Assembly (NCBI GenBank): GCA_048270185.1
Contig: JBLWTJ010000002.1
Span: 448,001-512,000, forward strand
Source of the DNA: Bacteriovoracaceae bacterium
Lineage (GTDB): Bacteria; Bdellovibrionota; Bacteriovoracia; Bacteriovoracales; Bacteriovoracaceae
DNA: 64,000 nucleotides
Reading direction: 5' to 3'
The notes under the pieces are model-generated. The model searched no databases and was not told where the DNA came from. It saw only the letters and a program-made list of their open reading frames with translations. Below are positions 1 through 16,769 of this stretch, piece by piece. The position numbers and the translations under genes were made by a program. Every line of letters begins with the position of its first letter. Within the stretch, counting starts at the first letter, position 1.

Positions 1-1019
1 TTCTTTCTCTTTGAATATGGGAAAACATGAAAGTGCGTAAGAGGTAGCTCTTTCATTAAATTAAATGTGTCTTGAAATTGCTCATCTGTTTCACCAGGGA
101 AGCCACAAATAACATCAGCACCAATTCCAGCATTTGGAAAACGAGATGTGATCTTTGTAATAATCTCTCGGTAATCTTCAACGGTGTACTTTCTCTTCAT
201 TCCCGAAAGAATGTCGTTATTTCCACTTTGTAATGGTACGTGAAAGTGATCTAAGAACTTAGATGATGAGGCCATATAATCAAGAAGTTCATCAGTGATT
301 GTATTTGGTTCAACACTTCCCAGACGAATTCTCTCTAGGCCTTCAAGAGCGTTTAATTCTTTTAAAAGATCTAACAGTTTTTCGCCCGAAGTTGTTTCGT
401 ATTCACCAATATTTACACCAGTAAGAACGATCTCTTTAAAACCTTGTGCAACAACTTCGCGAGCTTCAGTAATTGCCTGTGCAATAGAAACAGCTTTTGA
501 GCGTCCACGTGCAAATGGAATAATACAAAATGAACAAACGTAATTACACCCGTCTTGAATTTTTAAGAAAGCTCTCGTGTGCCCTTCTTCTTTTGAAGTT
601 GCAGCACCAAAGAAGTCTTTTGATTTATCAATGTGAATCGCATCGACTTCATCTTCATTTAAGTAATCGAAGACTTTATATTTCTCACTTGTCCCCAAAA
701 CAAGATCAACCCCTGTCATCTTAGCGATACGAGGAGCATCCATTTGAGCATAACAGCCGGCCACGACAATCTTTCCATCTGGAGAAGCTCTGTGGGCCTT
801 ACGAATAAGGTTACGACAAGTTGAGTCCGCCCCATCCGTTACAGTACATGTATTAATAAAAGTAACGTCTGCACTTTCACCAAATTCAACAACCTTATAA
901 CCACGCTCAACAAACCCCTGCGAGATTGTTCCCGTTTCTGAAAAGTTTAAGCGGCAGCCAAGAGTATGAAATGCTACTCTTTTATTTGTTTCTAATGTTG
1001 AATTTACTTCTGTCGTCAC
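1..1019 (-). CDS. mtaB: tRNA t6A37 methylthiotransferase MtaB (radical SAM); runs off the window start
   Basis: Manual minus-strand translation from GTG at 1019: KRVAFHTLGCRLNFSE...FINTCTVT...VVAGCYAQ...RAFLKIQDGCNYVCSFCIIPFARGRS (UPF0004 domain plus CxxxCxxC). Not in the ORF track because its stop lies outside the window. Confidence 0.88.
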   Translation of the reverse strand, partial: MTTEVNSTLETNKRVAFHTLGCRLNFSETGTISQGFVERGYKVVEFGESADVTFINTCTVTDGADSTCRNLIRKAHRASPDGKIVVAGCYAQMDAPRIAKMTGVDLVLGTSEKYKVFDYLNEDEVDAIHIDKSKDFFGAATSKEEGHTRAFLKIQDGCNYVCSFCIIPFARGRSKAVSIAQAITEAREVVAQGFKEIVLTGVNIGEYETTSGEKLLDLLKELNALEGLERIRLGSVEPNTITDELLDYMASSSKFLDHFHVPLQSGNNDILSGMKRKYTVEDYREIITKITSRFPNAGIGADVICGFPGETDEQFQDTFNLMKELPLTHFHVFPYSKRK

Positions 1020-1171
1020 TGAAGTCTACCTTTATAAAGTCCTGTATTAATCGAGTTAAAATAGACTATTGACCTATTTATGGCAACCCAACGGATAAAA
1101 AATACCAGCAGTAAATAAATTTAACTTCCTAAAAAAATTACTATTTTTTACATATTTTTTAAGATTCTATG

Positions 1172-1200
1172 TTGACTTCTGAACCAAGATTACTTATATT
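1172..1200 (+). promoter_or_regulatory. sigma70-type promoter of the tRNA-Lys/tRNA-Glu pair
   Basis: TTGACT-N17-TATATT, ending 21 bp upstream of tRNA-Lys. Confidence 0.7.
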
Positions 1201-1221
1201 CTATTTCACCAAAACACAGAT

Positions 1222-1298
1222 GGTCTCTTAGCTCAGTTGGTTAGAGCATCTCCCTTTTAAGGAGAGGGTCCTGCGTTCGAGTCGCAGAGAGATCACCA
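1222..1298 (+). tRNA. tRNA-Lys(TTT)
   Basis: Cloverleaf GGTCTCT...; anticodon arm TCTCC-CTTTTAA-GGAGA; TTCGA T-loop; encoded CCA. Confidence 0.96.
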
Positions 1299-1340
1299 TT
1301 TTAATGTTTTTTGGTTTCCAAATCCGGGAAATAAGTTAGC

Positions 1341-1418
1341 GCTCCCATCGTCTAGCCCGGTCTAGGACACCGCCTTTTCACGGCGGTAACAGGGGTTCGA
1401 ATCCCCTTGGGAGTACCA
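1341..1418 (+). tRNA. tRNA-Glu(TTC); integration target of the islands
   Basis: GCTCCCA...; anticodon arm CCGCC-TTTTCAC-GGCGG; GGTTCGAATCC; encoded CCA. Confidence 0.96.
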
Positions 1419-1454
1419 GTTTTATAAAGAAGCCAGACCTAGTCTGGCTTTTTT
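1403..1454 (+). repeat. att copy 1 (attL): tRNA-Glu 3' end plus terminator
   Basis: 52 bp identical to 5024-5075; 1401-1426 identical to 13493-13518. Confidence 0.92.
1430..1454 (+). terminator. Rho-independent terminator after tRNA-Glu
   Basis: AAGCCAGAC-CTA-GTCTGGCTT followed by a T run. Confidence 0.85.
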
Positions 1455-1552
1455 GTTTTCTAGCTACGGCGCAAATGAAATTCGGGTGTGCCACTTTAAA
1501 TCCAGCTTTATTGATCCACTATATTATCTATCAAACAAGGCCGTAGAAACAG

Positions 1553-1747
1553 CTAGTATCCACCGCCAATATTCTCCAGGTACTCTTTCATGATCTTGTT
1601 ATATTCCCTATTCATATTCTGATAAAACTGTTGTTGCTCATTCATAAGGTTTTGCTGATTCATCATATGTATTTGCTGTTGTGAGGCTAATTGGCGTCTA
1701 TATACAGACATTAATTTGTGCAAGAAATATAGTATGGGAAATTTCAC
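1553..1747 (-). CDS. small Q/N/M-rich hypothetical protein or gene remnant
   Basis: 64-aa ORF starting 6 bp after the stop of the upstream gene; no recognisable domain. Confidence 0.3.
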   Translation of the reverse strand: MKFPILYFLHKLMSVYRRQLASQQQIHMMNQQNLMNEQQQFYQNMNREYNKIMKEYLENIGGGY

Positions 1748-1753
1748 AGATAT

Positions 1754-3232
1754 CTAAATTTCATTTTTAAAATACTTTCTCATATATGTTGAAAAGTAAG
1801 ATTCATATTTCTCTCTTAAAAAATTATCTTTATAAACAATTCTTTCCCCTTGGAATATTGCTTCCAAATATTGAGCGAATATCCACTTTCGACTTGCAGG
1901 ATCTTTTTTCAGTGCAATGACTTTATCTAGAATATTTACTATTTCCTCCACTTTTCCATTAGCTAAAATTAAAAGTTTATCGAAATCTTCAATCGAAACA
2001 AAAAACACATTACTTTTCGGTATAACAATATCATCAAAGCTATATTTTTTAGATAATGTTTCACCAATAAATTCATCCCAAGCGTTCTCACTATCTCCAA
2101 GATATAACTCCTTGTAAGTTACAGTGATTAGGTATTTTCTCTCCTTCTCGCTTTTTTTTGCTACATAATTCCCTTGTATAATTGATTTAACTATATTTCC
2201 CTTGTACTGATTCATGAGCACTTCGTCCGTTGGAAATACCTTTACACTAGTAGAAGCCTCTATCCCCTTTGCTTCAATTGATAGAGAGTAATCAAGTCCA
2301 GTCAGCAAGAAGTCCACTTGCTTTTCATATCCTTTTTTCTTCAGATCATTTTCATCAAGAAAGCTTATTCTATAATTAAGTAATCTACTTGTTATGTAAT
2401 TTTCAAATGCATTTAAACCGAAATCTCGAGTAAAGCCGCCCTTGCACTCTAGCTTGAGTACATCATAAATTCCAAACTCCACAAGTTCCTGTATTAAATT
2501 AATATCCCATAAGAAATAATAATCTCCAAGTTTGATAAATGGTTTAAAAACAAATGGTGAATGATCAAACATATCATTTGAAATATTTCTAATTGGAAAA
2601 TCTTCAAAAAAATAATCTATCTTATCTAATTCGAGTGAAAAATATTCTAAAAATTTTTCAATTTTAATTCTTTCAATTTCTACAAATAGTTTTGAAAATG
2701 TTTCAACCTTAACATATTCAATGGGTGTACAAGAAAATAATGTCCAAATAGTAAATACAATATCTTGAAACTCGTTTCTTTCAACCCCACACACTCTTAC
2801 TAATGATTTTGAAAAATGAGCATCCATCTTTGAGTTAACTAATAGTTCACTTGCACGTGCTAATGTACTACTACAAAGCGATTTCTGTCCCCACATTTGC
2901 TGAAAGGACATTCTCCTCATAAATTTAAAAATTCCTTTTCCTTCACCATTTAAAAAGTTTAGTCCGCTATCATTACTAAAGTCTTTGATAGCCATTAAAA
3001 TTTTATTAATAGCTAATATATTAACTTCTTCGTCACCATCAATATTTTTCCAGTCAAATAACACCATCCTAGCTAATAACATTATTTCCCAAGGTACATA
3101 GCCTTTTTTCCAAGCATTTAATTGACTTCTAGAGACATGCAAACTTAATATTAAAAGCTCGTATATCAATTCTTCTCTTCTATATGCTCTTATCATTCTT
3201 AAAATTGGCTGAAATTCCTCTAAGCCTCGCAT
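1754..3232 (-). CDS. putative anti-phage protein with C-terminal PD-(D/E)xK nuclease motif (GapS1-like, tentative)
   Basis: Motif FENY...QVDFLL...SIEAKGIE. Start moved to ATG 3232 because of a GAGGT RBS (about 492 aa). Confidence 0.55.
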   Translation of the reverse strand: MRGLEEFQPILRMIRAYRREELIYELLILSLHVSRSQLNAWKKGYVPWEIMLLARMVLFDWKNIDGDEEVNILAINKILMAIKDFSNDSGLNFLNGEGKGIFKFMRRMSFQQMWGQKSLCSSTLARASELLVNSKMDAHFSKSLVRVCGVERNEFQDIVFTIWTLFSCTPIEYVKVETFSKLFVEIERIKIEKFLEYFSLELDKIDYFFEDFPIRNISNDMFDHSPFVFKPFIKLGDYYFLWDINLIQELVEFGIYDVLKLECKGGFTRDFGLNAFENYITSRLLNYRISFLDENDLKKKGYEKQVDFLLTGLDYSLSIEAKGIEASTSVKVFPTDEVLMNQYKGNIVKSIIQGNYVAKKSEKERKYLITVTYKELYLGDSENAWDEFIGETLSKKYSFDDIVIPKSNVFFVSIEDFDKLLILANGKVEEIVNILDKVIALKKDPASRKWIFAQYLEAIFQGERIVYKDNFLREKYESYFSTYMRKYFKNEI

Positions 3233-3392
3233 GCTAACCTCAATATATAATCCTTCAACAAAATAATTTCTATAATTTAAGTTTTCACTCTCTACACGTC
3301 GCATAATACATGAACAATTTATACCTAACAAAATAAAAAACTATTGAACTAATATCTATTTTTTAATAGAAATATCTACACAAGAGAGAATT

Positions 3393-4508
3393 ATGACAGC
3401 CAGCAAAAAAATAGACTTTTCAATTCACGATCTTTATCAATATTTAGAAAATTCATTTTCTGATAATAATGATTTAGATGTAATATACGTAGAAGACAGC
3501 GATGTAAGTAATACTCAAACACATCTAGTTTTTGAAGCAGCAGTTGGTACTGGTTCTAAAAGACTTAAAGTAAACCTATATGAACGCTTAGATGGAAGTA
3601 AAAACCTTACTGCTCCATCCAGTGGCCCATTAAAAGAAATAGGCGAGCAAATAATTGATCTAATTTATAATAATATTACAACAGTTCCCGTAAAGAATGG
3701 TTCACATGTAGTAAGAGGAACAGAAGAAACTCAAGTCCAATCATTTCTAGAAAAAGTTAAAGCAGCAGGAAACATTGTTGAAATATCAAAAGATGATGAC
3801 TCATTCTTTGTGTTTAAAGTAAACAAGATTAAATGCGGTGAAGTAAAAGTAACGTTCTATCGTACAAATGGAACTATAATGCTTCAAGGGGCTAGTAATA
3901 TATATTTTGGTGAAATTGTATCACACTGCATTGCAGAGCTTGGACACAAATTTGATGAAGCATTTAACTCCATAACAAATTCTGTAGATAATCAGTCTGT
4001 TATTAGTTGGAATGTTAATATACTTGAAAGTAATCTTAAATCAAAGCTAGGCAGTGCTTATGATCAACTTTGGCCCCATGATAAGGAAAGACTAAAAACT
4101 CTACAAATATTCGTCGATAATGATTTGAATTTTCCTGATTATTCAATTTTTGTAGCTTACGTTGGATTTGTTGTTGAAGGTGCAATCAAGTGCTTTTTAG
4201 TAAAGACAGGAATGTATTCAGATGAACAGGTAAGTCGAACAGATTTTAAAATGGCACATCCAGACTGTACAAAACAGGCTCCGTTCCACTTCCCTCAAAC
4301 TAGCTCAGTTAATCCTGTTCTTAACTTTGGACTGCCCAATATTTATGCTAATCTAGAGGGTAAGCTTATTGAGTGCTACCAGTTTTTAAGGACTTATAGA
4401 CATGACTTTAGTCACTCTAGAAAAAATATACAGCTAGTTGCGTCAGAAGCCGATGCGAAGGATAATGTGTTAGATGCATTGGACTTAATAAGAGAGCTAT
4501 TACAATGA
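3393..4508 (+). CDS. RnlA/LsoA-like HEPN endoribonuclease toxin
   Basis: 371 aa; two TBP-like repeats (VNLYERLDG.., VTFYRTNGTIMLQG) and a C-terminal HEPN motif RHDFSH (R-x4-H). Confidence 0.65.
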   Translation: MTASKKIDFSIHDLYQYLENSFSDNNDLDVIYVEDSDVSNTQTHLVFEAAVGTGSKRLKVNLYERLDGSKNLTAPSSGPLKEIGEQIIDLIYNNITTVPVKNGSHVVRGTEETQVQSFLEKVKAAGNIVEISKDDDSFFVFKVNKIKCGEVKVTFYRTNGTIMLQGASNIYFGEIVSHCIAELGHKFDEAFNSITNSVDNQSVISWNVNILESNLKSKLGSAYDQLWPHDKERLKTLQIFVDNDLNFPDYSIFVAYVGFVVEGAIKCFLVKTGMYSDEQVSRTDFKMAHPDCTKQAPFHFPQTSSVNPVLNFGLPNIYANLEGKLIECYQFLRTYRHDFSHSRKNIQLVASEADAKDNVLDALDLIRELLQ

Positions 4509-4888
4509 AACTTGAAAGAGTAAGTTTACCAAATTCAAATTTCTTCTTTGTTGTTCATGACAGCAATAATATTGTTATTTTTGAAAATAAGAATATTCCA
4601 TACACTGGCAATAGCGAGGAGTATATAAAATCCCTATCTGCTTATGATCTAAGCTCTAAGAAAGTTTTTATAGATCAATTGGTAGGCTCAGATATCTCAT
4701 GTTACAGAATTTTAAAGCTAAATGAAAAATCTGCTGTTGAACTTGAATTTCTAACACTACCTAAAAAGATCAAGAGCATGATTAATATGTTTTACAATGA
4801 GGGTGTTGACTTTAAGTACCCTAAATTCTTAGAAAAAACATTTTCGAAGAAAAGAAACAATATTTTAAGTTTCGCACTCTCCTCTTAA
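4505..4888 (+). CDS. RnlB-like antitoxin
   Basis: 127 aa, ATGA overlap with the toxin; size and position match RnlB/LsoB. Confidence 0.5.
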   Translation: MKLERVSLPNSNFFFVVHDSNNIVIFENKNIPYTGNSEEYIKSLSAYDLSSKKVFIDQLVGSDISCYRILKLNEKSAVELEFLTLPKKIKSMINMFYNEGVDFKYPKFLEKTFSKKRNNILSFALSS

Positions 4889-5023
4889 TTAAATAACCAT
4901 CTTTCAATCTTATTCATACTACTAATAAAACTATTCAAGTTTTAATAAAGATATATACTTTAATTAATATAGTAATTAAGAAATAATACCTAAGTAACTA
5001 TGATCATTATAATTTAATACACA

Positions 5024-5075
5024 CCCCTTGGGAGTACCAGTTTTATAAAGAAGCCAGACCTAGTCTGGCTTTTTT
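5024..5075 (+). repeat. att copy 2 (junction between islands A and B)
   Basis: CCCCTTGGGAGTACCAGTTTTATAAAGAAGCCAGACCTAGTCTGGCTTTTTT, identical to 1403-1454. Confidence 0.92.
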
Positions 5076-5097
5076 TATGTCTAAAATCTTCTGCTCG

Positions 5098-6408
5098 TTA
5101 TTTGCTCGTCGATCCTACTTTCGTACTATTCTCATTCATGAAGCCTTCGATATTCTCTAAAGCATCTTTTGTAAGATGAGCTGGACGATCTGTATAGACA
5201 TGCTCCACTAATTCTCTGGTCTTCCAACCACCAACAGCTTGTGCATGCTCAATGCCCATTCTCTCTCGCACGAGGTTTGCCATAGAGTGACGTAGAATGT
5301 GAGTCGAACTAAACTTATGGCCTAATCCTGCATTTCTTAGGGCCTTATTATAACGATAGTGGATCGTTCGATAATTAAGAGGCTGGCCATCTAGATGAAA
5401 GACGAAATCACAGGAAACCTTGTTCCCTGTTCTCATATCTTCTACCTTAGAAGCTTTCCTCTCCTCGAATCGTCTTTTAAGAATAGCAAAAAGTCTTGAA
5501 GTCATAAAAACATTTCGATCTTCACCATTTTTAGGACAATCCTTTATATACTGAAATGATTTTTGTGGTCCCCAGACAGCTACATTTTCAATCTCAATGA
5601 TCCCATCCACAAAGTCGACACTTTCCCATTGAAGCCCTGCAACTTCTTGCACCCTACCAGAAAAATAAAATTGAACTTCGGCCAAATCACGCCAGAAGAT
5701 ATCGTCTTTTTCCAATTCTTCAAAAAAAGAAATGAGTTCATGCCTGCGCATTTTCTTCTTTCTTTTGGGAACTTTTCTAATAAGACCCTCTTGCTTATGT
5801 CTTTTAAGAATTGGATTAACAAATTGTGCATCAATATTTTCTCGATACCAATTAAGTACTGCTTTTAGACATTTAAGGTCATCATTAAAATTGTATCTTC
5901 TACTCTGAGGATTATTTATCGCCTCTTCCTTTTTATCCATTAGATATTCGGAAATATAGCTTGCTGTCATTTCAACCATAGGCCTAGACATCATTCCCTT
6001 TAAAAAGAGCTTTCCATTTTGTACTCGTCTATCAAAGGTTGATTTCTCTACTGTGACGAGGTGTTTAGAGACATAAAGTTCCCAAACATCACTAAAGGAG
6101 TAACCAAAATCATTACCATTTTTCATTTTAATGGTGTCATGCCTTTTTATTTCCTTTCCTAAACTTGAAAGTCGCTGGACAAGCTTTCCTTTTTTAAGTT
6201 TGCTTAAAGGAGTTAAATTAAGACTTGGATGGAAATTTTTCTTCCAATCCGCCGCCTCCTCTAACGTCTTAAAGGACGAATAATATCTCTTTCCTCTGAT
6301 ATATTTTTGCACGAGGAAAGTTCCATTAACTAAATCCTTTCTAATCCCTTTTACATCTTTATACGATACTGAAACGTATCTTCGTTTTTTTTCTGTTTTA
6401 TTGTTCAT
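5098..6408 (-). CDS. tyrosine recombinase / integrase
   Basis: Catalytic R (SGRVQE), K (PKNG), HxxR (HILRHS), W (GGW), Y (HVY). Start at ATG 6408 with AGGAG RBS and TAATG coupling to xis. Confidence 0.93.
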   Translation of the reverse strand: MNNKTEKKRRYVSVSYKDVKGIRKDLVNGTFLVQKYIRGKRYYSSFKTLEEAADWKKNFHPSLNLTPLSKLKKGKLVQRLSSLGKEIKRHDTIKMKNGNDFGYSFSDVWELYVSKHLVTVEKSTFDRRVQNGKLFLKGMMSRPMVEMTASYISEYLMDKKEEAINNPQSRRYNFNDDLKCLKAVLNWYRENIDAQFVNPILKRHKQEGLIRKVPKRKKKMRRHELISFFEELEKDDIFWRDLAEVQFYFSGRVQEVAGLQWESVDFVDGIIEIENVAVWGPQKSFQYIKDCPKNGEDRNVFMTSRLFAILKRRFEERKASKVEDMRTGNKVSCDFVFHLDGQPLNYRTIHYRYNKALRNAGLGHKFSSTHILRHSMANLVRERMGIEHAQAVGGWKTRELVEHVYTDRPAHLTKDALENIEGFMNENSTKVGSTSK

Positions 6409-6668
6409 TAACAATCTCCTTGTAATACCCATTCAAGGATTTCGTTAGGAACGAAAAACAAAAACTTACCTTTTTTCCTTCTCGGAATCTTCTCATCTGA
6501 ACACAGATTATAGATATGTCCTACAGAACAATCTAAGAATCTTGCTACATCGCTTACACGCCATATTCTTTTTTTAAAGAGCTGTTCTTCTTCTCGGAAG
6601 AAACTACTTTTTTCTATGCTATTTTCTACTTCATTGCAATTATTAAACCCTCTAATCACACTATCCAT
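6408..6668 (-). CDS. excisionase-like HTH_17/AlpA-type DNA-binding protein
   Basis: WRVSDVARFLDCSVGHIYNLCSDEKIPRRKKGKFLFF..EILEW; directly upstream of int. Confidence 0.8.
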   Translation of the reverse strand: MDSVIRGFNNCNEVENSIEKSSFFREEEQLFKKRIWRVSDVARFLDCSVGHIYNLCSDEKIPRRKKGKFLFFVPNEILEWVLQGDC

Positions 6669-6697
6669 ACTACTCCAATTTTACGTATTACTAATCT

Positions 6698-6823
6698 TGG
6701 CCCGCTCTAACTTACTGAAATATTACCCCCGTCTAAATTGACCTCCTCCACACTACTGGTTGAGTGGGGGAGGTCAATTTCGTAAGGGGGATTTCTAAGT
6801 AAGTTTAAATACTTTGCGGGCCA
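6698..6823. repeat. 126-nt imperfect inverted repeat (candidate origin or structured RNA)
   Basis: Nested pairings TGGCCCGC/GCGGGCCA, AACTTAC/GTAAGTT, GAAAT/ATTTC, CCCCC/GGGGG, AAATTGACCTCC/GGAGGTCAATTT. Confidence 0.8.
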
Positions 6824-6891
6824 TAATTTTTACCATCCACCTTAATCGCCTCTTAGACGCTTCGTAATCCCTCTCTAATCGCCGGTCATAC

Positions 6892-7626
6892 TCAGATCAA
6901 TCGCTCGCCGAAAGTGTTCGTAAAATTGAAGTTATATTGAAAGTTGTAATAGCCAGTCGTATCCTCTAGATTAATTTTTCCTTTCACCAAATGTGGATTA
7001 TGGCAGAATATAAATAGATCTGAATGCTGTGTTTCTAAATGCTCTTGGAAGACTTCTACATACTTTTTCAAAATAGATTCTTCAGGAAAGAAAAAGATAA
7101 CATAATCGAATGTGTCATCTTTTATGAATTTATAATATTTATTTTGAATACGCGTCGAAGACTTTTGAGTTAGCTCTAACTCTACTGCCATTTTCACATT
7201 ATCATCGGCTTGAGTAATCACCTCTAAGACTCCATCAGGATAGTATCCTCCATCTGATCTATCGTAGCTAAAATCTCGATAGACGTGTTCAAGATCAAAC
7301 TCATTAACATTCTTACGTAGACGAAGTTCTCTAATCAACTCAACCATTCTAGTATCGTGAAACATACTGTGATGGTTTGGTGTAAATTTTCCTCCTTTCA
7401 ATAACAATTCGTTTCCAAGCTCAGTCGCAAATATATATTTTTTGCGACTGAAGTAATCCCTATAACCTTGCACAAGGCCCTTTTTCTCTAGGCCTCTCAT
7501 AACCTTATTGAACGTCTTATACGTTCCTTGGTAAATTGATTCTTCAAATAGATTCTCTAGTGTTAGAATTTTCCACTTAATTAGTGGTCTTAAAAGTTGT
7601 AAATGTACTGGGTTGATTTGAATCAT
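6892..7626 (-). CDS. replication-relaxation (Replic_Relax)-like protein
   Basis: N-terminal wHTH, HHSMFHD, YPDGVL...AVELELTQKSSTRIQNK. Likely start ATG 7626 with AAGGAG upstream. Confidence 0.6.
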   Translation of the reverse strand: MIQINPVHLQLLRPLIKWKILTLENLFEESIYQGTYKTFNKVMRGLEKKGLVQGYRDYFSRKKYIFATELGNELLLKGGKFTPNHHSMFHDTRMVELIRELRLRKNVNEFDLEHVYRDFSYDRSDGGYYPDGVLEVITQADDNVKMAVELELTQKSSTRIQNKYYKFIKDDTFDYVIFFFPEESILKKYVEVFQEHLETQHSDLFIFCHNPHLVKGKINLEDTTGYYNFQYNFNFTNTFGERLI

Positions 7627-7853
7627 AACGTCGATAAGTTTCTCCTTAAAAATCGTGAATAAACATGAGAAACAAGGTCTTACCGAAGTAATAAATGAGC
7701 TGTCAAACGCCTGATTTCGCTTACATCTTACATTTGAGGTATTTTTGCTAGTGCCTGACATCTCTAGAAATCTCGGGACATCTCCAGACAGGTCAAAGTG
7801 CTGTAAGAAAAAAAATTAAAAAAATTTTTCTTACACTTATATAATTGTATCTT

Positions 7854-8486
7854 CTATTTTCGTCGTTTCTTACTTACGTGAAATTTATAATAATCTTCAT
7901 AGAACTTTTCATATTGTTTAAAAAACTCTTCATAATATTTACTATTACTTTCTGGTGTATATGGAGGAAGAGGAGGTAAAGGTGCTCGAGGAAAGCCATC
8001 AAAGGGGCCTCCTCCGTTCGGATCTATATAGTTATTAATTGTAATAAAATTATAAAGAATAGCTCCACCAAATATACTTATATTCATTAATAAGTGTATT
8101 GATGTTACCAAATACCCCAATTGATTTAATGAGAATATTTGTTCAACTGATCCTGCAACTGCAACTCCCACCGTAAATGAGAAAACATTTATGATTCTAT
8201 TTATTCCAGTCCCTAAAGAAATGTAGGAAGCTTTATTTTTTGCAATTTCCCCTAACAGAATTTCCCCAAAACCATAATAAAGAAAAAAGAATCCAATATT
8301 TATAGTCAACAAAAAGAGAATTGCTGTGCTAGGAGATATACGAAAATTACAAATCATACTGAGAGCTCTATCTTGAGATATATAACTTCTATTTTCATGA
8401 TATATGGTATTTAGATAGATCAAGATGAGTACCAAACAAGGAATAATTCCTAAGCAAATACCTAAAATTATGTAATGTAAGTTCAT
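7854..8486 (-). CDS. hypothetical membrane protein (about 4 TM, Pro-rich linker)
   Basis: Hydrophobic segments, PRAPLPPLPP, GGAG RBS. Confidence 0.6.
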   Translation of the reverse strand: MNLHYIILGICLGIIPCLVLILIYLNTIYHENRSYISQDRALSMICNFRISPSTAILFLLTINIGFFFLYYGFGEILLGEIAKNKASYISLGTGINRIINVFSFTVGVAVAGSVEQIFSLNQLGYLVTSIHLLMNISIFGGAILYNFITINNYIDPNGGGPFDGFPRAPLPPLPPYTPESNSKYYEEFFKQYEKFYEDYYKFHVSKKRRK

Positions 8487-8630
8487 TTTTTCTCCAAAAT
8501 TTCTGTATAAATTTCAGAATAGGAAGGCACTTTAATCTAGCTCCTCTCTAAGTATAAACATTATCAATTAATAGCATTTATGAACATATTGATGTTAATC
8601 TAAATTTTAAAATCAATAAGTTATATAAGA

Positions 8631-8703
8631 ATATCCATAAAAATATCCATATATATCCAAAAAGAGTGGATATATGGATATATATGGATATAATTATGGA
8701 TAT
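8631..8703. repeat. array of 3x ATATCCA and 4x TGGATAT upstream of fic
   Basis: ATATCCA at 8631, 8643, 8653; TGGATAT at 8667, 8675, 8685, 8697. Confidence 0.85.
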
Positions 8704-8714
8704 AGAGGTAAAAA

Positions 8715-9764
8715 ATGGAAATATGGCAAAAGAATGTTCAAATCACACCCAAAATTCTCAAACTTATAGCTGAGATTGATGAATTTAAAGGCTCGTGGTC
8801 TGCACTTGGCCAGTTAGCTCCAGATAAGCTTATGAGCCTAAAGAAAGTGGCCACAATTGAATCTGTCGCTTCATCAACTAGGATCGAAGGTGTTAAATTA
8901 AGTGACTCAGAAGTAAAGGCTCTCTTGTCTGGTCTTGATGTGAATTCATTTAAAAGCCGTGATGAAGAAGAAGTCGCAGGTTATGCAGAAGCAATGAACC
9001 TTATCTTTGAAAGCAGTTCAGAACTTATCCCAAATGAAAATATTATCAAACAACTTCATCAAGAGTTACTAAAATTTAGCTCAAAAGACATTCGTCACAG
9101 AGGCGAATATAAAAAACTTAATAATCATGTTGAGGCATTTGCTCCGGACGGAAAAAGTCTCGGTATTATTTTTCAAACCTCAACTCCTCTTGAAACTCCT
9201 TACAAGATGGAATCTCTATCTGACTGGCTTTCTAAATCTACGAGTGAACCTGAAATACATATCTTAATTACCATAGCGATTTTCACAGTGAGTTTTTTGG
9301 CAATTCACCCCTTTCAAGATGGAAATGGAAGACTATCACGTGCACTCACGGCCCTCCTACTTCTAAGAGCAGGTTACGACTACACTCCCTATTCTTCTCT
9401 GGAAAGAGTCATAGAAGAAAATAAAGATTTATATTACTTGAAGCTTAGAGAAGCGCAAACTGAAAATGAAGAGAGTGCTGACGGGCTTATTAGCTGGATA
9501 ACTTTCTTTCTTGAATGTCTTGTTAAGCAGAAGAATTCTCTTAAGAGAAAGGTTGAGAAAGAAAAAATATTAAAATCTCTTCCAAAGCTTTCAGAGAAAA
9601 TTCTCATCCTATTAAAAGAACATGAAAAACTATCTGTTAGTGACATTGTTAAGCTTACAGGAGCTAATAGAAACACGGTCAAATCACACGTTTTTAGCCT
9701 TGTAGAAGACAATGAAATTCAAAAAGGTGGACAAGGTAAAGGGACTTACTATTTTTTAACCTAA
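8715..9764 (+). CDS. Fic family AMPylase with C-terminal HTH
   Basis: HPFQDGNGRLSR catalytic motif; N-terminal SSTRIEG autoinhibitory motif; wHTH tail. Confidence 0.92.
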   Translation: MEIWQKNVQITPKILKLIAEIDEFKGSWSALGQLAPDKLMSLKKVATIESVASSTRIEGVKLSDSEVKALLSGLDVNSFKSRDEEEVAGYAEAMNLIFESSSELIPNENIIKQLHQELLKFSSKDIRHRGEYKKLNNHVEAFAPDGKSLGIIFQTSTPLETPYKMESLSDWLSKSTSEPEIHILITIAIFTVSFLAIHPFQDGNGRLSRALTALLLLRAGYDYTPYSSLERVIEENKDLYYLKLREAQTENEESADGLISWITFFLECLVKQKNSLKRKVEKEKILKSLPKLSEKILILLKEHEKLSVSDIVKLTGANRNTVKSHVFSLVEDNEIQKGGQGKGTYYFLT

Positions 9765-9788
9765 AATGTATCCACATAGGAGAATTAA

Positions 9789-11534
9789 ATGAGCTTTAGA
9801 GTAAAGCCAAATCGTCTTAAGTCTTTAATCACAAGAGGTTTTTTTCCAAAAGAAATACCATGCTGTTTTAGGCCAACAAACTTTTCAGATATTGTAGATC
9901 TATCTCCGGATGAACTAAATCAAAATAAACGTCAATCAGCAAAACTCATTTCACACAATGTAACACGATTTGGTTCATTTACTAGAAAACTAGGAATACC
10001 AAATCCTATCACATTTTATCGTTTATCATCTTTAATATCTGAGCATTTTAATGAAATCCTTCCTCTAACTATAAAATCTAGCTACGGAGTAACTTTTCCA
10101 AAATCATCAACCACTGGAAGAGCTTTCGTCTGGGAATCAGATTGGCAAGAATGGAAAGAAGAAAAGATAAAAAGACAAGCAGGGTATAAATATGCTCTCA
10201 AAACAGATATTTCTAACTTTTATCCCAGTATATACACTCATATAATCCCTTGGGTTCTTCATGGAAAAAAACATTCAAAATCTAATAAAAGAGATAAAAC
10301 ATTACTTGGTAATAGAATAGATTCTTCAATTGGCTTTTCACAAGATAATCAAACACAAGGGTTACCAATTGGTCCAGACACATCATTTCTCATATCCGAA
10401 TTGATTCTAAACAAAATAGACACTACAATAAAAAAGCAACTCAAAAGTGCAAAAATTAAACATAGTGCTATTCGATTTGTAGATGACTGTGAATTTTATT
10501 TTCTCAATAATGACGATGCAAATAAAGCGTTAAACATCATTTCAAGAGTATATTCTAATTTTGAATTAGCACTAAGTCCTCACAAGACTGAAATATACAA
10601 ACTCCCTTTAGAATTTGAAAAAAAATGGGTGTCACAAATAAGAAGCTATCCTAGCCCCATTGCGACAAAAAAGTCCCAAAAGAGTAAACGTCAACTAATC
10701 ATTGACTACTTTGACTTTATCATAGAGCTCCAAAGAGAGAATCCTCACGAACAGGTAATTTCATATGCGATGGCCAGAATTGAAAAAGAGTTTTATCTAC
10801 TTGATGATGAACTGTTATTTTTCTCATTACTCATAAATTTAATCCCATTAGATACGAGTATATTAAAGTGGATAATTCATTTTCTTAATCTTGACTCAAA
10901 ACTACTAGAATCAAATATGCTACAAAATCTATTTCAAGAAGTTATTCCTAGAATTGCTCTTGATTGTAGCGAACATGGAAAGCACAATGATACACTTTGG
11001 GCATTAATTATTTCATATATATTTGATATTTCCTTCTCAAAAAAAATGAGCAATGAAATTTATAAACTAGGAAACTCTTTTGTAAAGATTCTTTGTCTCG
11101 ACTTAACTCTTGTTAGCCTAATGAAAATTGAAAAATCACTGTCTCCAAAAGAAGATGATTTCTTTGAAGAAGACTGGCTTCTTTTTTACACAGTATTTAC
11201 TAACGATGAATTCATTAATTTTAGATCTAACAAAAGTAACGGTATCAAAAAAAATATCTTTTTCAAGATGTTAAAAAATAATAATGTCTCTTTCTATGAG
11301 CCCTTTCCTTCCGATGACTCTATAGAGGCTATTCAGGAATATGTAGCAAAGCTATGTGACAAAATTGAAAGCACAGAGTACAAAATTGAAATTGATGGTG
11401 ACTTCTATGACCCAGAAGACCCACATCTAAGCCAATGTCTCCGATGTGGAGCATTCTTCACCCCTTCTGAACAAGAACAAATTTGTAATTCATGCTGGGA
11501 TGATATAACTCATGAAGACGACATTCCATTTTAA
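9789..11534 (+). CDS. Abi/UG-class (AbiK/Abi-P2/DRT4-like) reverse transcriptase with helical C-domain, CxxC-CxxC ribbon and DDIPF tail
   Basis: RKLGIPNP; TDISNFYPSIYTHIIPWVLHGK; QTQGLPIGPDTS; RFVDD; LSPHKT. Confidence 0.88.
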   Translation: MSFRVKPNRLKSLITRGFFPKEIPCCFRPTNFSDIVDLSPDELNQNKRQSAKLISHNVTRFGSFTRKLGIPNPITFYRLSSLISEHFNEILPLTIKSSYGVTFPKSSTTGRAFVWESDWQEWKEEKIKRQAGYKYALKTDISNFYPSIYTHIIPWVLHGKKHSKSNKRDKTLLGNRIDSSIGFSQDNQTQGLPIGPDTSFLISELILNKIDTTIKKQLKSAKIKHSAIRFVDDCEFYFLNNDDANKALNIISRVYSNFELALSPHKTEIYKLPLEFEKKWVSQIRSYPSPIATKKSQKSKRQLIIDYFDFIIELQRENPHEQVISYAMARIEKEFYLLDDELLFFSLLINLIPLDTSILKWIIHFLNLDSKLLESNMLQNLFQEVIPRIALDCSEHGKHNDTLWALIISYIFDISFSKKMSNEIYKLGNSFVKILCLDLTLVSLMKIEKSLSPKEDDFFEEDWLLFYTVFTNDEFINFRSNKSNGIKKNIFFKMLKNNNVSFYEPFPSDDSIEAIQEYVAKLCDKIESTEYKIEIDGDFYDPEDPHLSQCLRCGAFFTPSEQEQICNSCWDDITHEDDIPF

Positions 11535-11558
11535 AGGAATTTATATATTGGAGAAAAT

Positions 11559-12317
11559 ATGGGCCACTACGATACACAACAAGTTTGTTTAAACGGACAC
11601 CAAATTACAGATTCAGTAAAAAAACACCCTAATGGGAAAAAGGACTTTTGCAATACATGCGGAGCAAAAACAATTACGACATGCCAAAACTGTGGTGCTG
11701 AAATAAAAGGGCATTACTATACTCCAGGTATTGTAAGTATGTTTTCTGCAAGTATTCCAAGTAACTGTGACAGCTGCGGAGCTGAACACCCATGGACTAC
11801 TGCCAGTAAATCAAATGCAACAAAAGCAGCATCTTCAGAAGCTCCATCAATAAATGATTCTATTGAGTTAATAAAATTAATTAGTCAAAGGTTTCATATG
11901 TTTGCAAGACAAATGCAAAATAGGCATTCTAATCGCTCAACTCTAGAATTTAATGATGAATATGATGTGCAAGATGCTTTCCATGCAATTCTTAAATTAC
12001 ATTTTGATGATGTTCGAGCAGAAGAGTATGTCCCAAGTTATGCTGGATCCTCTTCACGTATCGACTTTTTAATACACGATGAAGAAATTGCAATTGAAAT
12101 TAAAAAAACAAGAAATGGACTAAAAGACAAAGAGGCTGGTGAACAGATTGCCATTGATATACAAAGATACGAGACTCACCCGAAGTGCAAAAAACTTATT
12201 TGTTTTATCTATGATCCTGAAGGTAGAATTGGGAATCCAACAGGAATTGAAAGAGATTTAACAAAAAAGGTAAATGAATTACAAGTTATTACAATAGTTG
12301 CACCAAAAGGGCACTAA
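11559..12317 (+). CDS. DUF2321-like Zn-ribbon domain fused to a DpnII/MboI-like PD-(D/E)xK nuclease domain
   Basis: QVCLNGH..FCNTCGAKTITTCQNCGAEIKG..CDSCGAEHPWT; EYDVQD..RIDFLI..AIEIKKTR..FIYDP. Confidence 0.75.
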   Translation: MGHYDTQQVCLNGHQITDSVKKHPNGKKDFCNTCGAKTITTCQNCGAEIKGHYYTPGIVSMFSASIPSNCDSCGAEHPWTTASKSNATKAASSEAPSINDSIELIKLISQRFHMFARQMQNRHSNRSTLEFNDEYDVQDAFHAILKLHFDDVRAEEYVPSYAGSSSRIDFLIHDEEIAIEIKKTRNGLKDKEAGEQIAIDIQRYETHPKCKKLICFIYDPEGRIGNPTGIERDLTKKVNELQVITIVAPKGH

Positions 12318-12341
12318 GTTTCGCGTTTATAAGGGAGTTCT

Positions 12342-13358
12342 ATGCAGGAACATTTTGGATATTTTCCCAAGAAGAACTGGGAGGAACTATCAAATGAACA
12401 ACAAGAGTACTTCTATTCACTTTCAGAAGAAGAGTTGATTTCTCGTTGGAAGACTGAGGACGGATATAAAATACTCGAAGAAATCTTATCTCTAAATAAA
12501 AAGATGAACCTTTCTGGCAAACCATATGAAAGACCAGACTATAGTAAAATTACTGGTACAGTTAAAAGTGACTTGTCAAAAAAACCTCCAAAGTTTGATT
12601 TGAGAGGTATAAATCTTCAAGAATACAAAGCTTCAACAATTGATGAGATTGTTCCACATAACTTTTCATTCTGTGACCTTAGATATTCAAACTTTAAAAA
12701 TGGCAATTATAGTAACTCACATTTTAATAATTCCGATATATTATATAGCGATTTTTCTGGTTCAATATTAGATGAATGTAATTTCTCAAAATCAAACCTA
12801 ACATTGAGTGATTTCAGTTACACAAACCTAGACCATGCAAACTTTAGTAATAGCTGGATAACTAGCCTGAGATTAAAAAAAGCCTCTCTCTCATATGTTA
12901 AGTTTTCTAACGATACAAAGTTTTATGACATAGATATTAGTGAAATCTCAGGAAATGCAAACCCTTTCTTCACTTCACATGTACGTAGAACACTATATCT
13001 GAACAACTTCAGAGAGCAGAGTTCTACAAACAACCTGTTATATCACGCATGGAAAATCACAAGTAATTGTGGAGAAAGTTTCTTTCGATGGTACATAACA
13101 GCATCATGTATTATAGCCCTTTTTGGTTTTATATTCTCCTTGATGCCTGAAGTATTACATAGCGGAACAACTAAAGAGTTAACACCATTCACTTTTTATT
13201 ACTTTAGCACAGTCACCTTCACAACTCTTGGCTTTGGAGATATCACCCCCGTTGGTTTAGTAGGAGAAGCTCTTGTAACAATTGAAGTTATTTTAGGATA
13301 CATAATGCTAGGTGGATTAATTAGTATATTTTCAAACAAATTCATTGCAAAAGATTAA
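12342..13358 (+). CDS. pentapeptide-repeat protein with C-terminal 2TM K+-channel-like domain
   Basis: S/C-D/N-F/L-S-x repeats; pore helix and filter FYYFSTVTFTTLGFGDITP flanked by two TM helices. Confidence 0.85.
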   Translation: MQEHFGYFPKKNWEELSNEQQEYFYSLSEEELISRWKTEDGYKILEEILSLNKKMNLSGKPYERPDYSKITGTVKSDLSKKPPKFDLRGINLQEYKASTIDEIVPHNFSFCDLRYSNFKNGNYSNSHFNNSDILYSDFSGSILDECNFSKSNLTLSDFSYTNLDHANFSNSWITSLRLKKASLSYVKFSNDTKFYDIDISEISGNANPFFTSHVRRTLYLNNFREQSSTNNLLYHAWKITSNCGESFFRWYITASCIIALFGFIFSLMPEVLHSGTTKELTPFTFYYFSTVTFTTLGFGDITPVGLVGEALVTIEVILGYIMLGGLISIFSNKFIAKD

Positions 13359-13492
13359 TATTGCTCGTTTTTGCTCGTCGATAGCCATGAATTAAGATGA
13401 AAAATGATGAAAAGTCCCGAGAAAGAAAAAGGCAAGCCTTTGAAATCGCTCGTAACGCCTTAGAATGATTGATTAAATTTACACGATTGGAT

Positions 13493-13518
13493 ATCCCCTT
13501 GGGAGTACCAGTTTTATA
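13493..13518 (+). repeat. att copy 3 (attR)
   Basis: ATCCCCTTGGGAGTACCAGTTTTATA, identical to 1401-1426. Confidence 0.9.
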
Positions 13519-13520
13519 TT

Positions 13521-13544
13521 AGGCCAGTCTTTGACTGGCCTTTT
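13521..13544 (+). terminator. terminator after attR (probably the original chromosomal tRNA-Glu terminator)
   Basis: AGGCCAGTC-TTT-GACTGGCCT-TTT. Confidence 0.75.
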
Positions 13545-13565
13545 ATATTTTTGGAGGCAGCAATT

Positions 13566-13750
13566 GCCACGATGGCAAATTGATGCCGAACAACGCCGAC
13601 CGACCAGTATGGGAGGTCAGGTGAATCAACTAAGCAAAATAGCCTCACCTACTTTTACTGACAATAATTCAAACAGAAGCGCCACGATGGCAAATTGATG
13701 CCGAACAACGCCGACCGACCACTATGGGAGGTCAGGTGAATCAACTAAGC
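13566..13750. repeat. two 70-bp structured direct repeats (13566-13635, 13681-13750)
   Basis: 69/70 identical; each copy has two CCA-nnn-TGG hairpins. Confidence 0.9.
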
Positions 13751-13830
13751 TATTCCACCCTTCCCCCATTCGTACAAAATCAATTTCTAGCTTACAATAT
13801 TACTTTATCCCTTTAATAAATGAGAAAGTA

Positions 13831-14958
13831 TTGAGCTTAGACTTCTATAATAAACTTCCAATTATCAGCGAATTCACACAAATGGCGGACTTGAGCTTCT
13901 ATCAAGACCTACCGGATGATTGGATTATTATTGTTACAGATGTCATCGATTCAACCAAGGCCGTCGCGGCCGGAAAGTATAAAGATGTTAATACCATTGG
14001 GGCCGCAACGATTTCATGTGTGCAGGCCAAGCTTAAAACGCTTGGTTTTCCCTTTGTCTTTGGAGGCGATGGTGCAACTCTTGTGCTACCAACGAATCTC
14101 TATGAAGAAGTTAAAAGCGATCTAGTGGCCCTAATGAAAATCTCACAAGATAAGTTTGGGCTTAGTATGCGTGTTGGGGCCATTTCAAATAAAGAGCTTC
14201 TTGATAAAGGTATTAAAACAAAAGTCTCGCGTTATCAAATCAATCCCAAGCAGGCCATTGCCGTCTTTAGTGGAGGCGGACTTAAGCTTGCGGATAAAAT
14301 TATAAAAGATGAATACGATAAGTATCAACTGACGGCTTCTCAGGATACAAATTCCGACCTGAGTAATCTCTCATGTCGCTGGAACCCTATTCCAAGTAAA
14401 TTTGGAAAGATTCTAACTTTGCTTATTGAATCAAAATCTCAAGATGAGAATTATTATAATGAGATTCTAACCAATCTGGATCAAATTCTTGAAGGACAAG
14501 TTTTAAATCGAGGACCGATGAACTTGGATAAGATGACGTATAAGGGATTCTTTCAACTATTATTTGAAGAGTCTCGCCTATCCCTATCACTGGATCGTTT
14601 GAAGAGTATCTTCTTTTCAATAGTTTTATTCAAGTGGGGCAAATACAAAGACTATCCAAATGTGGAAAATTACCGCAAGCAGATGGGGCTTCACAGTGAT
14701 TATAAGAAATTTGATGACATGATTAGACTGGTTCTCGACTGTGGCCCAGAACAAGTTAATAAGATCGAAAAATATCTTAAGGATGAATATCAAAAGGGTC
14801 ACTTAATCTACGGAACTCATCTTTCTAACACAGCTCTTATGACTTGCTTAGTGGAAACAATTGAAGATGGAGATCATATTCACTTTATAGATGGTGGTGA
14901 TGGTGGTTACACAGCAGCTTCAATTCAATTAAAAGAGCAGGCCTTACTGCGAGAGTGA
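13831..14958 (+). CDS. DUF3095 family protein (nucleotide cyclase-like)
   Basis: TDVIDSTKAV..GKYKDVN, FVFGGDGAT, HIHFIDGGDGGY. Confidence 0.75.
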   Translation: MSLDFYNKLPIISEFTQMADLSFYQDLPDDWIIIVTDVIDSTKAVAAGKYKDVNTIGAATISCVQAKLKTLGFPFVFGGDGATLVLPTNLYEEVKSDLVALMKISQDKFGLSMRVGAISNKELLDKGIKTKVSRYQINPKQAIAVFSGGGLKLADKIIKDEYDKYQLTASQDTNSDLSNLSCRWNPIPSKFGKILTLLIESKSQDENYYNEILTNLDQILEGQVLNRGPMNLDKMTYKGFFQLLFEESRLSLSLDRLKSIFFSIVLFKWGKYKDYPNVENYRKQMGLHSDYKKFDDMIRLVLDCGPEQVNKIEKYLKDEYQKGHLIYGTHLSNTALMTCLVETIEDGDHIHFIDGGDGGYTAASIQLKEQALLRE

Positions 14959-15753
14959 TATCGCTTCTTCGACAACATTGCCTTTAAAACCTCGACGTTC
15001 AATATAGCGTCTAAAGAAGCCTGAGGCCTTAGCGATGAGGGTTTGTCTTTTTGGAATAACGATCTGTTCAGAACGTTGCTCAATTCCTTGAATGATCTCG
15101 CGAACAACTTCATCAATTGAGATCATCTTCCAAGGTCCTGATTGATTTCCACCCCATAACTTTTCACCGACTGGATCACTTGTTACTCCATCCATTAAAG
15201 GGGACGCAAAGAATGTAGGATGGAAGCTTCCTACATCGACACCTAAGTGCTTAACTTCAAGGCGAATACTATTACAGATGGCGTGAAGACCGGCTTTACT
15301 TGCTGCATATGAAGCTTGCAATGGACAGTGAACAAATGAGGCCATGGAACAGATAGCGGCCATGTAACCTTCGCTAAGGGCAATATAAGGAAGGGCCGCT
15401 TTAAAAGTTCTCCAGGAACCGTTTAAGTTAATATCAATAACTCGTGAAAAGTCTTCTTCATTAGTTGTCATCATTGGGGCCACTTGTGTAATACCTGCAT
15501 TGGCAATGACGATATCGATGCAACCATAGTGAGAATTAATCTCTTTCATCGCAACTTCAAGGGAAGAGTAATCTCTTACATCGGCACTGAAGCCAACTGC
15601 ATCTAAATCTCTGGCCAACTCATTAACCTGTGTTAAGTCGAGATCAATAAGAGCAAGCTTGGCGCCACGTTTAACTAACTCATAAGATAGAGCACGCCCT
15701 AAGCCTCCAGTGGAGCCAGTAATGGCAATCACTTTATCTTTTACTTCTCTCAT
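14944..15753 (-). CDS. short-chain dehydrogenase/reductase
   Basis: TGSTGGLG, NAG, YAASK; start placed at ATG 15753. Confidence 0.9.
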   Translation of the reverse strand: MREVKDKVIAITGSTGGLGRALSYELVKRGAKLALIDLDLTQVNELARDLDAVGFSADVRDYSSLEVAMKEINSHYGCIDIVIANAGITQVAPMMTTNEEDFSRVIDINLNGSWRTFKAALPYIALSEGYMAAICSMASFVHCPLQASYAASKAGLHAICNSIRLEVKHLGVDVGSFHPTFFASPLMDGVTSDPVGEKLWGGNQSGPWKMISIDEVVREIIQGIEQRSEQIVIPKRQTLIAKASGFFRRYIERRGFKGNVVEEAISLSQ

Positions 15754-15926
15754 AAATTCTCCCGATATCGCTTTGGTATAGCACAAGTAAATCTATCGAA
15801 TTGAGTCTTTGTAATAATTCCATCTTCCAAAGAAGGCTAAATAGCGAATTTCACGAGATATTAGTCAATCTAAACAAGCAAAAATGCCCCCTAATCAATT
15901 GTTTAAATTTAAAATGATATAATTAA

Positions 15927-16769
15927 TTGATGAGATGGATTTTGCTAATCGCCCTATTTCTACTAAATATCATGGCCTTTGCTCAAGAAAAGTTCGCCAA
16001 TGAATTCTCATTTAAAATCGAAAATGATGCCGCCTTTGAAACCGATAAGTATTACTCCAATGGAGCTGAACTACTTTATCAGAGAAGATTCTTTCACTCG
16101 TCATCAATGACGAAACTTCGCTTTGGCCTTACTCACCAAATCTACACTCCAGAGGCGACATTTGATGAGACCGTTGTTGAAGGGGATCATCCATATACAG
16201 GTGTTTACTATGGAACTCTAGGACTACTTCACGTCAATAATAGCTTCTATTTAAAAACTGATTTATGGATTGGCAAGCAAGGCCCTGATGCCAAAGCAGG
16301 TATCCTACAAAATCTCTTTCACAAGATGACCCCTTCTTCGCAAGTTAATGGATGGACAAATCAAACGGCCAATAGCTCATTTTATAACGGTGATATTAAA
16401 TTTATAAAAATTAATCGTTCACAATTTTTAGAATTATCACCATGGATGAATATCAGGTATGGTGGTCTAATTAAAGATTACGAGTTGGGACTTAAGACTT
16501 CTCTCTTTCTTGGCCCTCTTCAACTCTTTGCCAACGGATCTGTTGTCTATAATGAATATAACTCAACTCTTCAAGGCCCAAAGAATGGTGAGTCGGTCTA
16601 TGTTATTGCGGAGGACAAGATGAATGATCTCTACTATAAAGCCGACGTTGGTTTTCATCTCATCTTTAGTCGCGTGCGATTTACGATTAAGGCCAATTGG
16701 TATAGTGCTCAATTTGAGGGGGCCAGTGATCATACCTACGCCACTTTTGAGACGGCCTTCTACTTCTAA
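15927..16769 (+). CDS. lipid A 3-O-deacylase LpxR (DUF2219) family outer-membrane protein
   Basis: Signal peptide; END...DKYYSNG; HQIYTP; HPYTG; QNLFH; GWTNQ; C-terminal F. Confidence 0.75.
   Translation: MMRWILLIALFLLNIMAFAQEKFANEFSFKIENDAAFETDKYYSNGAELLYQRRFFHSSSMTKLRFGLTHQIYTPEATFDETVVEGDHPYTGVYYGTLGLLHVNNSFYLKTDLWIGKQGPDAKAGILQNLFHKMTPSSQVNGWTNQTANSSFYNGDIKFIKINRSQFLELSPWMNIRYGGLIKDYELGLKTSLFLGPLQLFANGSVVYNEYNSTLQGPKNGESVYVIAEDKMNDLYYKADVGFHLIFSRVRFTIKANWYSAQFEGASDHTYATFETAFYF

Follow-up and report, generated by a model that had tools for sequence, protein, structure and literature searches.

The four-gene cargo block and its neighbourhoods

The DNA analysed here is a 64,000-nucleotide stretch (the window) of a Bacteriovoracaceae genome (assembly GCA_048270185.1, contig JBLWTJ010000002.1, positions 448,001 to 512,000), which includes an 8.5-kb integrative element, island B, at a tRNA-Glu gene. 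The cargo (right) end of island B is a block of four genes that encode a Fic protein, a reverse transcriptase (RT), a nuclease, and an ion channel. This block is very probably a stack of four likely independent proteins, single-gene defences or candidates for that role, which share one promoter and each act alone rather than as a circuit. Defence hotspots of integrative elements and phage satellites are characterized by an integrase, attachment (att) repeats at a tRNA gene, variable cargo beside an att end, and islands in tandem; island B has the same layout, and only its particular set of cargo genes differs. As a cargo stack the four-gene combination is not new as a system. What is new is a DRT6-type RT with a zinc ribbon and a tip like that of single-stranded DNA-binding protein (SSB), together with an orphan clade of channels resembling HalA. 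The features of the block are as follows.

8631-8703, + strand: operator with a 29-bp inverted repeat (I1), overlapping the best promoter-like site (8667-8694)
8715..9764, + strand: class II Fic AMP-transferase, 349 amino acids (aa), with a C-terminal winged helix (SoFic-like); Pfam Fic, motif HPFQDGNGR, H198
9789..11534, + strand: DRT6/UG12 class 1 defence RT, 581 aa, with an alpha-repeat domain, C-terminal zinc ribbon, and DDIPF tip; PADLOC Drt6, 422.5 bits
11559..12317, + strand: nuclease, candidate defence, 252 aa; DUF2321 zinc ribbon and PD-(D/E)xK domain of the REase_DpnII-MboI type, with D169, E180, and K182
12342..13358, + strand: channel, candidate defence, 338 aa; pentapeptide beta-helix and two-helix K+-type pore (Pentapeptide and Ion_trans_2), TTLGFGD at 294-300

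A sequence-only reading of the window had described four co-oriented genes with GGAG or GAGG ribosome-binding sites, 24-bp gaps, and no visible terminators in the cargo slot of island B, and this description is borne out by the open reading frames (ORFs) and the sequence. All three intergenic gaps are exactly 24 bp, each with a GGAG, and the Fic start is preceded by GAGG. The domains it had named are present (Fic with a winged helix-turn-helix, or wHTH; RVT_1; DUF2321 with REase_DpnII-MboI; Pentapeptide with Ion_trans_2), as are the motifs (FVDD, the Fic histidine, RID/EIK, and GFG). No terminator-like site occurs on the + strand within the block, according to a weak scan that found three sites where shuffling predicts 3.2; the first and only one, at 13521-13541, is beyond the right att copy, which makes a single transcript plausible from sequence. 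Three equal gaps have a chance probability of about 0.001 per run, so that about 0.15 such runs are expected among the 149 four-gene runs of the genome; two were found, the block itself and one run with spacings of -8, -8, and -8. The equal spacing is not significant genome-wide and is therefore treated as an unexplained curiosity. A cassette mechanism was rejected as its source, as the three spacers have only the ribosome-binding site in common. Codon usage and G+C content at third codon positions set the four genes apart neither from the rest of the genome nor from one another.

The same reading had proposed either one sensor/effector circuit, an undescribed multi-gene system, or a stack of independent single-gene defences, and had set a neighbourhood analysis of each protein's homologues as the test. 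Among the matches listed, the 188 channel loci include no Fic gene, no nuclease, and a single RT match of the group II intron type. None of 52 RT loci (46 viral, two plasmid, two short genome loci, and two more) has a Fic, nuclease, or channel gene. In 14 Fic loci (51-95% identity) the gene is never followed by an RT, nuclease, or channel, and at one of them a group II intron-type RT lies upstream; four nuclease loci lack any other block member. The RT matches at loci L148 and L201 were rejected as true partners upon inspection, being group II intron RTs. The distributions of the genes also differ: of 200 host-family genomes, 41 have a Fic homologue (E<=1e-30), one gives a partial nuclease match, and none has the channel, and the RT is rare, with two distant matches in 100 relatives and two in 300 genomes of the phylum. 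The lack of co-occurrence in unrelated neighbourhoods and the differing distributions speak for a stack and against a single circuit, and a conserved four-gene system was rejected for the neighbourhoods examined.

Recurrence of the block is confined to near-identical elements, which are about 98% identical at the nucleotide level. Close relatives of the element were found in sequencing runs X1 (from one study) and X2 and X3 (from a second). In X1, a 9147-bp contig spans the element from att to att and includes all four genes, with 112 differences over 8631-13522 (about 4.9 kb); its left cargo is swapped, 794 bp (7837-8630) being replaced by 1441 other bases. Runs X2 and X3 bridge the Fic and RT genes, and X3 additionally bridges the nuclease and channel. 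Left of the operator, the DNA comes in at least three versions (that of the window, that of X1, and that of X2 and X3), and each is joined at 8631, where the inverted repeat begins. That the four genes stay together in near-identical elements from two studies while the left flank is exchanged indicates shared descent, and such joint inheritance is predicted by stack and circuit alike.

Several points weigh against the stack. Retention of the block is compatible with selection on it as a whole. The neighbourhood counts leave out the closest homologues of the RT (51-52%) and the nuclease (61-67%) and most of those of the channel (about 50%); the channel's own clade is covered by only six loci, one of them 1.7 kb long, and the channel counts cover the matches listed by two scans. 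The 46 viral RT loci include many that are redundant or contain other class 1 RTs. The defence role assigned to the Fic protein, nuclease, and channel would, moreover, derive from their context here.

The DRT6-type reverse transcriptase and its tail

By sequence, the RT is a member of DRT6/UG12, a known defence type that is described as single-gene in PMC13213688 (Table 1) and PMC9226505. The sequence-only reading had called it an AbiK/Abi-P2-type enzyme, which holds insofar as it is an Abi-type class 1 RT; its proper type by hidden Markov model (HMM) and fold is DRT6/UG12, and AbiK and Abi-P2 score lower on both. The UG12 model (PDLC03748, 422.5 bits) outscores that of UG15 (PDLC03752, 274 bits), whereas the named Drt4 (P0221) gives the reverse order (269 for UG12 vs 541 for UG15). 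Against two older models labelled Drt4, the RT scores 402 and 395. The AlphaFold model (pLDDT 89.6) includes a helical region at about 280-524, and its best Foldseek match is the hexameric DRT6 structure 9wy8 (TM 0.88 of target, rmsd 3.1); the best match among solved sequences is likewise DRT6. The catalytic motif F230-V-D232-D233 has the [YF]xDD form, and D140, H151, D178, D232, and D233 are invariant in all 45 aligned sequences.

The likeness to DRT6/UG12 thus extends over the RT with its alpha-repeat domain, the catalytic aspartates, the fold, and the lack of upstream room for a non-coding RNA (ncRNA). Rfam matched nothing but tRNAs in 1-16000; on this result and the 24-bp gaps on both sides of the gene, an ncRNA partner was rejected. 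The RT here differs in its added zinc ribbon and DDIPF tip and in its position inside a likely operon. DRT4/UG15 shares the fold, and H151 and D178 correspond, counted along the alignment, to the DRT4 RNase pair H160/D192 reported in 10.64898/2026.10.21.760695. Because this pair is invariant and aligned to that of DRT4, the RT may, judged from sequence, carry its own effector. A DRT4 identity was rejected: the RT falls below the NCBIfam Drt4 cut-off (251 bits vs 450), the order of the PADLOC models is opposite, and Ser117 stands where DRT4 has its priming Tyr125, in a column that is variable across homologues. In 61 of 262 DRT6-like proteins the last residue is a tyrosine while this internal priming column varies; a C-terminal priming tyrosine is a possibility for these enzymes.

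The RT terminates in a zinc ribbon (CxxC-x12-CxxC) followed by DDIPF, which is identical to the last five residues of the host chromosomal SSB. The zinc ribbon is found in three of 262 RT homologues, namely this RT and its two closest relatives, which stop four residues earlier and lack the tip. A terminal PF occurs in 14 of the 262, or 14 of 250 full-length sequences (at least 490 aa; 12 shorter ones were dropped), compared to 20 of 7500 internal positions of the same tails (0.27% expected; binomial p 1.5e-14). Elsewhere, five of 2065 genome ORFs and none of 240 channel and nuclease homologues end in PF. The 14 PF-ended RTs fall in 13 separate places in a tree of 219 sequences, a quick and rough tree in which kin are not fully independent. 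Their tails are acidic in 11 of 14 cases, and the strict form [DE][DE][ILVM]PF occurs in only three. DDIPF as a family-wide trait was rejected (strict motif in only 2 of 117 and 1 of 145 homologues); the rarity of the strict motif is the reason that only recurrent gain is claimed.

Three sources (PMC12783706; 10.64898/2026.10.27.754916; 10.64898/2026.04.29.721553) report that host ExoI restrains DRT4, DRT6, and DRT10 and that SSB-like proteins of phages trigger them; according to the latter two, one phage trigger of DRT4 and DRT10 ends in FDDDIPF. For DRT6, synthesis of untemplated DNA linked to protein, toxicity when ExoI is lacking, and activation by phage ORF55 are reported (PMC12783706; PMC13213688; PMC9226505). 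The same tip on a defence enzyme, gained in about 13 lineages, suggests that the RT enters the SSB partner network, and the tip would likely let the RT dock onto host DNA-processing enzymes. A literature search on DDIPF in defence and on SSB-tail mimicry, with most subscription papers outside its reach, found no RT-borne tip. Mechanistically, the DRT6 hexamer probably makes protein-primed, untemplated single-stranded DNA (ssDNA) constantly. A phage SSB-like protein would protect or bind this ssDNA and so trigger abortive infection, possibly via the RNase His/Asp pair conserved with DRT4. The DDIPF tip would have one of two roles: bringing in host nucleases that interact with SSB and limit the length of the product, or competing with a phage SSB tail.

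Host ExoI is doubtful as the partner of the tail, since ExoI is found here only on a 5.8-kb contig and in none of five complete relatives. The second SSB and the only ExoI of the assembly lie on small contigs (C8 and C23), which may be contamination given the absence of ExoI from all five relatives. No recurring neighbour was seen at the viral RT loci.

The Fic unit, the nuclease, and the channel

The Fic protein resembles SoFic in its Fic motif and C-terminal winged helix, and binding to its own promoter is likely from the sequence. Its S54-x-x-x-E58-G59 is taken here to be an inhibitory-type motif. The PADLOC SoFic model matches over nearly the whole length (164 bits), in contrast to the NCBIfam SoFic equivalog, for which the protein is far below the cut-off (58 bits vs 550). 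SoFic is reported to bind the 100-bp region that precedes its own gene start (10.64898/2026.07.09.737422) and to act against phages as a toxin, paired with the small antitoxin AS1 (PMC12249575). No small AS1-like gene is found downstream of Fic in the block, where the RT starts 24 bp later. The inverted repeat is conserved upstream of Fic in the window and in the 11 orthologues aligned there, taken from the 14 closest loci, and is likely the binding site of the Fic-wHTH protein. Nucleotide similarity begins at 8621-8635 for seven of eight orthologue loci and ends with the Fic gene. Operator and Fic would thus be a self-contained unit whose promoter serves the later cargo. The unit probably arrived as promoter, operator, and gene together; Fic probably represses its own promoter, and this self-repression would set the read-through expression of the three genes behind it. 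The earlier suggestion that Fic regulates the block is plausible as promoter control, and only in that sense.

In genome G015, a 95%-identical Fic adjoins tRNA-Glu and is followed by unrelated genes; at this locus (L197:7424-9858) two copies of a tRNA-Lys/tRNA-Glu pair flank a small insert, and the Fic unit lies directly after the second. Fic homologues are often near toxin-antitoxin or integrase genes. Two distant homologues (51%) have a different, GGGTG-type repeated word at the same upstream position (L208:8040-8173 and L209:8570-8703), which suggests that operator and wHTH change together.

The nuclease retains its cysteines and D169/E180/K182 in at least 95% of 55 aligned sequences, and the build of DUF2321 plus REase is widespread among its homologues. 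A full-length homologue occurs alone in the cargo of a Klebsiella integrative and conjugative element (ICE), beside AbiEi/AbiEii; the three other loci (one full-length, two single-domain) likewise have no other block members. Its zinc-ribbon domain probably senses a trigger, upon which the enzyme would cut DNA. A search of viral contigs returned nothing useful, and the literature on DUF2321/REase held nothing on this four-gene combination, most subscription papers being outside the search.

The channel belongs to a tight, monophyletic clade (support 1.0) of about 45 full-length homologues at 40-50% identity. The top Foldseek match to its model (pLDDT 89.2) is HalA of Hailong (9nyi; E 1.8e-7, 315 columns, 12% identity, TM 0.30). 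In a second alignment (VIA-align), HalA is, among the 50 rows listed, the known structure aligned over both beta-helix and pore (Z 10.4, 225 residues, rmsd 11.6), ranked below several generic pentapeptide proteins. HalA, as described in a review (PMC13434031), has the same cytoplasmic pentapeptide beta-helix, C-terminal two-helix pore, and length class. The channel differs in its low identity and TM score, in falling below the HalA family cut-off (16 bits vs 250; best clade E-value 4.8e-9), and in the lack of HalB: the island has no HalB-like nucleotidyltransferase, and six clade loci gave only a weak PolyA_pol match. At that locus (L004:7995-10641), in a prophage-like region, a clade channel and a membrane protein precede a weakly nucleotidyltransferase-like gene two downstream of the channel (PolyA_pol E 0.0075), the sole HalB-like hint.

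This build, with no HalB on the island, could fit a guard circuit like Hailong, in which ssDNA made by DRT6 replaces the oligo-dA of HalB and holds the HalA-like channel shut; loss or masking of that DNA through a phage nuclease or SSB would then open it. Such a circuit is very unlikely. Both DRT6 and HalB make protein-primed untemplated DNA according to PMC12783706 and PMC13434031, but 14 of 15 members of the channel clade have a neutral to acidic cytoplasmic region, and the score against HalA is low. The RT and channel genes share a likely common transcript, and yet the nuclease gene lies between them; no class 1 RT is present at any of the 188 channel loci among the matches listed, no channel is present at the 52 RT loci, and in the two other genomes with the channel clade no RT match anywhere is more than weak and partial (E about 1e-6). 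An RT product acting on a membrane effector has a proposed precedent in DRT10 (10.64898/2026.04.29.721553). The specific form in which a lineage-specific circuit on this element has DRT6, its ssDNA length tuned by the SSB-mimic tail, gate an orphan HalA-like potassium channel in HalB's place is improbable to the same high degree.

The contexts of the channel bear on a different possibility: DRT6 would be the working defence, and the other three proteins (Fic, nuclease, and channel) would be passengers that play no part against phages and are selfish, tied to stress, or involved in ion homeostasis. The PADLOC check proposed earlier recovered Drt6 and SoFic and no defence HMM for the channel. 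Distant pentapeptide channels occur mostly in housekeeping or signalling contexts, with an HDOD gene directly downstream in 71 of 156 loci among the matches listed (L004-L163, e.g., L012, L014, and L016), mostly in one channel clade (59 of 61 tips). Mobile or defence cargo is nonetheless the setting of the channel's own clade. Its five flanked loci have differing neighbours, all in such settings: the channel is the first gene after Tn7 tnsD, beside PDC-S26 and GmrSD (L086), and others are near PDC-S02 (L087), near DUF3644/HEC-08 (L085), beside an HsdR_N gene (L005), and in the prophage-like region at L004. A PADLOC match lies within two genes at two of five clade loci compared to three of 24 loci drawn at random from the distant clade (3 of 87 proteins), a weak contrast given small numbers and neighbours chosen differently. 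The Fic protein scores far below the SoFic cut-off, is common in the host family, and often has toxin-antitoxin or integrase neighbours, all of which would suit a passenger, but the nuclease keeps its catalytic residues and has a full-length homologue beside AbiEi/AbiEii. On balance, partly functional cargo of this kind is unlikely.

If the four genes are instead a stack, the channel would probably depolarise the cell upon cue-driven release of its beta-helix. A HalA-like clade in mobile cargo without HalB raises the question of what gates channels that lack a DNA-making partner. The chances are about even for a further reading, in which mimics of the SSB tip have arisen again and again among DRT6 enzymes and dock onto DNA-processing enzymes of the host, and in which the channel clade represents a new defence of the single-gene kind. 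The assignment of the RT to DRT6, the HalA-like build of the channel, and the zinc ribbon and SSB-like tip of the RT go beyond what had been noticed from the sequence before.

Searches for the channel elsewhere gave little: the clade in 400 genomes of another class returned only the seed, HalA was above its cut-off in none of 251 genomes, phage and plasmid records held nothing useful, and the ESM Atlas held only unnamed pentapeptide-channel clusters. Tandem paralogous pentapeptide channels or pentapeptide proteins occur at four loci (L006, L015, L121, and L122).

The tRNA-Glu element and the adjacent island

Island B has att repeats at a tRNA, an integrase, and variable cargo, and the cargo slot proposed for the block is confirmed by these features together with paired repeats at both ends. 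Its remaining features, listed after the tRNA gene itself, are as follows.

1341-1418: tRNA-Glu; its 3' end is repeated at 1403, 5024, and 13495
5024..5039, + strand: left att copy, a duplicate of the tRNA-Glu 3' end (repeat family D1)
5092..5109, + strand: paired TGCTCGT direct repeats at the left end, matching the pair at 13362-13378
5098..6432, - strand: tyrosine integrase of island B (Phage_integrase, E 6.8e-15)
6408..6668, - strand: excisionase-like HTH_17 protein (E 1.1e-7)
6892..7761, - strand: replication-relaxation (MobC-like) protein; weak NF041423 match (E 8e-4), with homologues at loci L201 and L202
7854..8486, - strand: variable cargo gene, 210 aa, hydrophobic, with no Pfam, PADLOC, or NCBIfam match
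13362-13378, + strand: paired TGCTCGT repeats at the right end, directly past the channel stop
13495..13510, + strand: right att copy, a repeat of the tRNA-Glu 3' end

The TGCTCGT pairs are, from their sequence and position at both element ends, likely arm-type sites of the integrase. A second island, island A (1419-5039), is located upstream of island B. It lacks an integrase of its own and encodes, within 1754-4888, a GapS1-like protein (227.6 bits vs a cut-off of 320). An RnlA-like gene of island A (weak Pfam match) overlaps a 127-aa ORF, and the two are probably a toxin-antitoxin pair. Outside the right att copy, two 70-bp direct repeats at 13566-13750 (99% identical, spacing 115) are possibly an intergenic repeat element.

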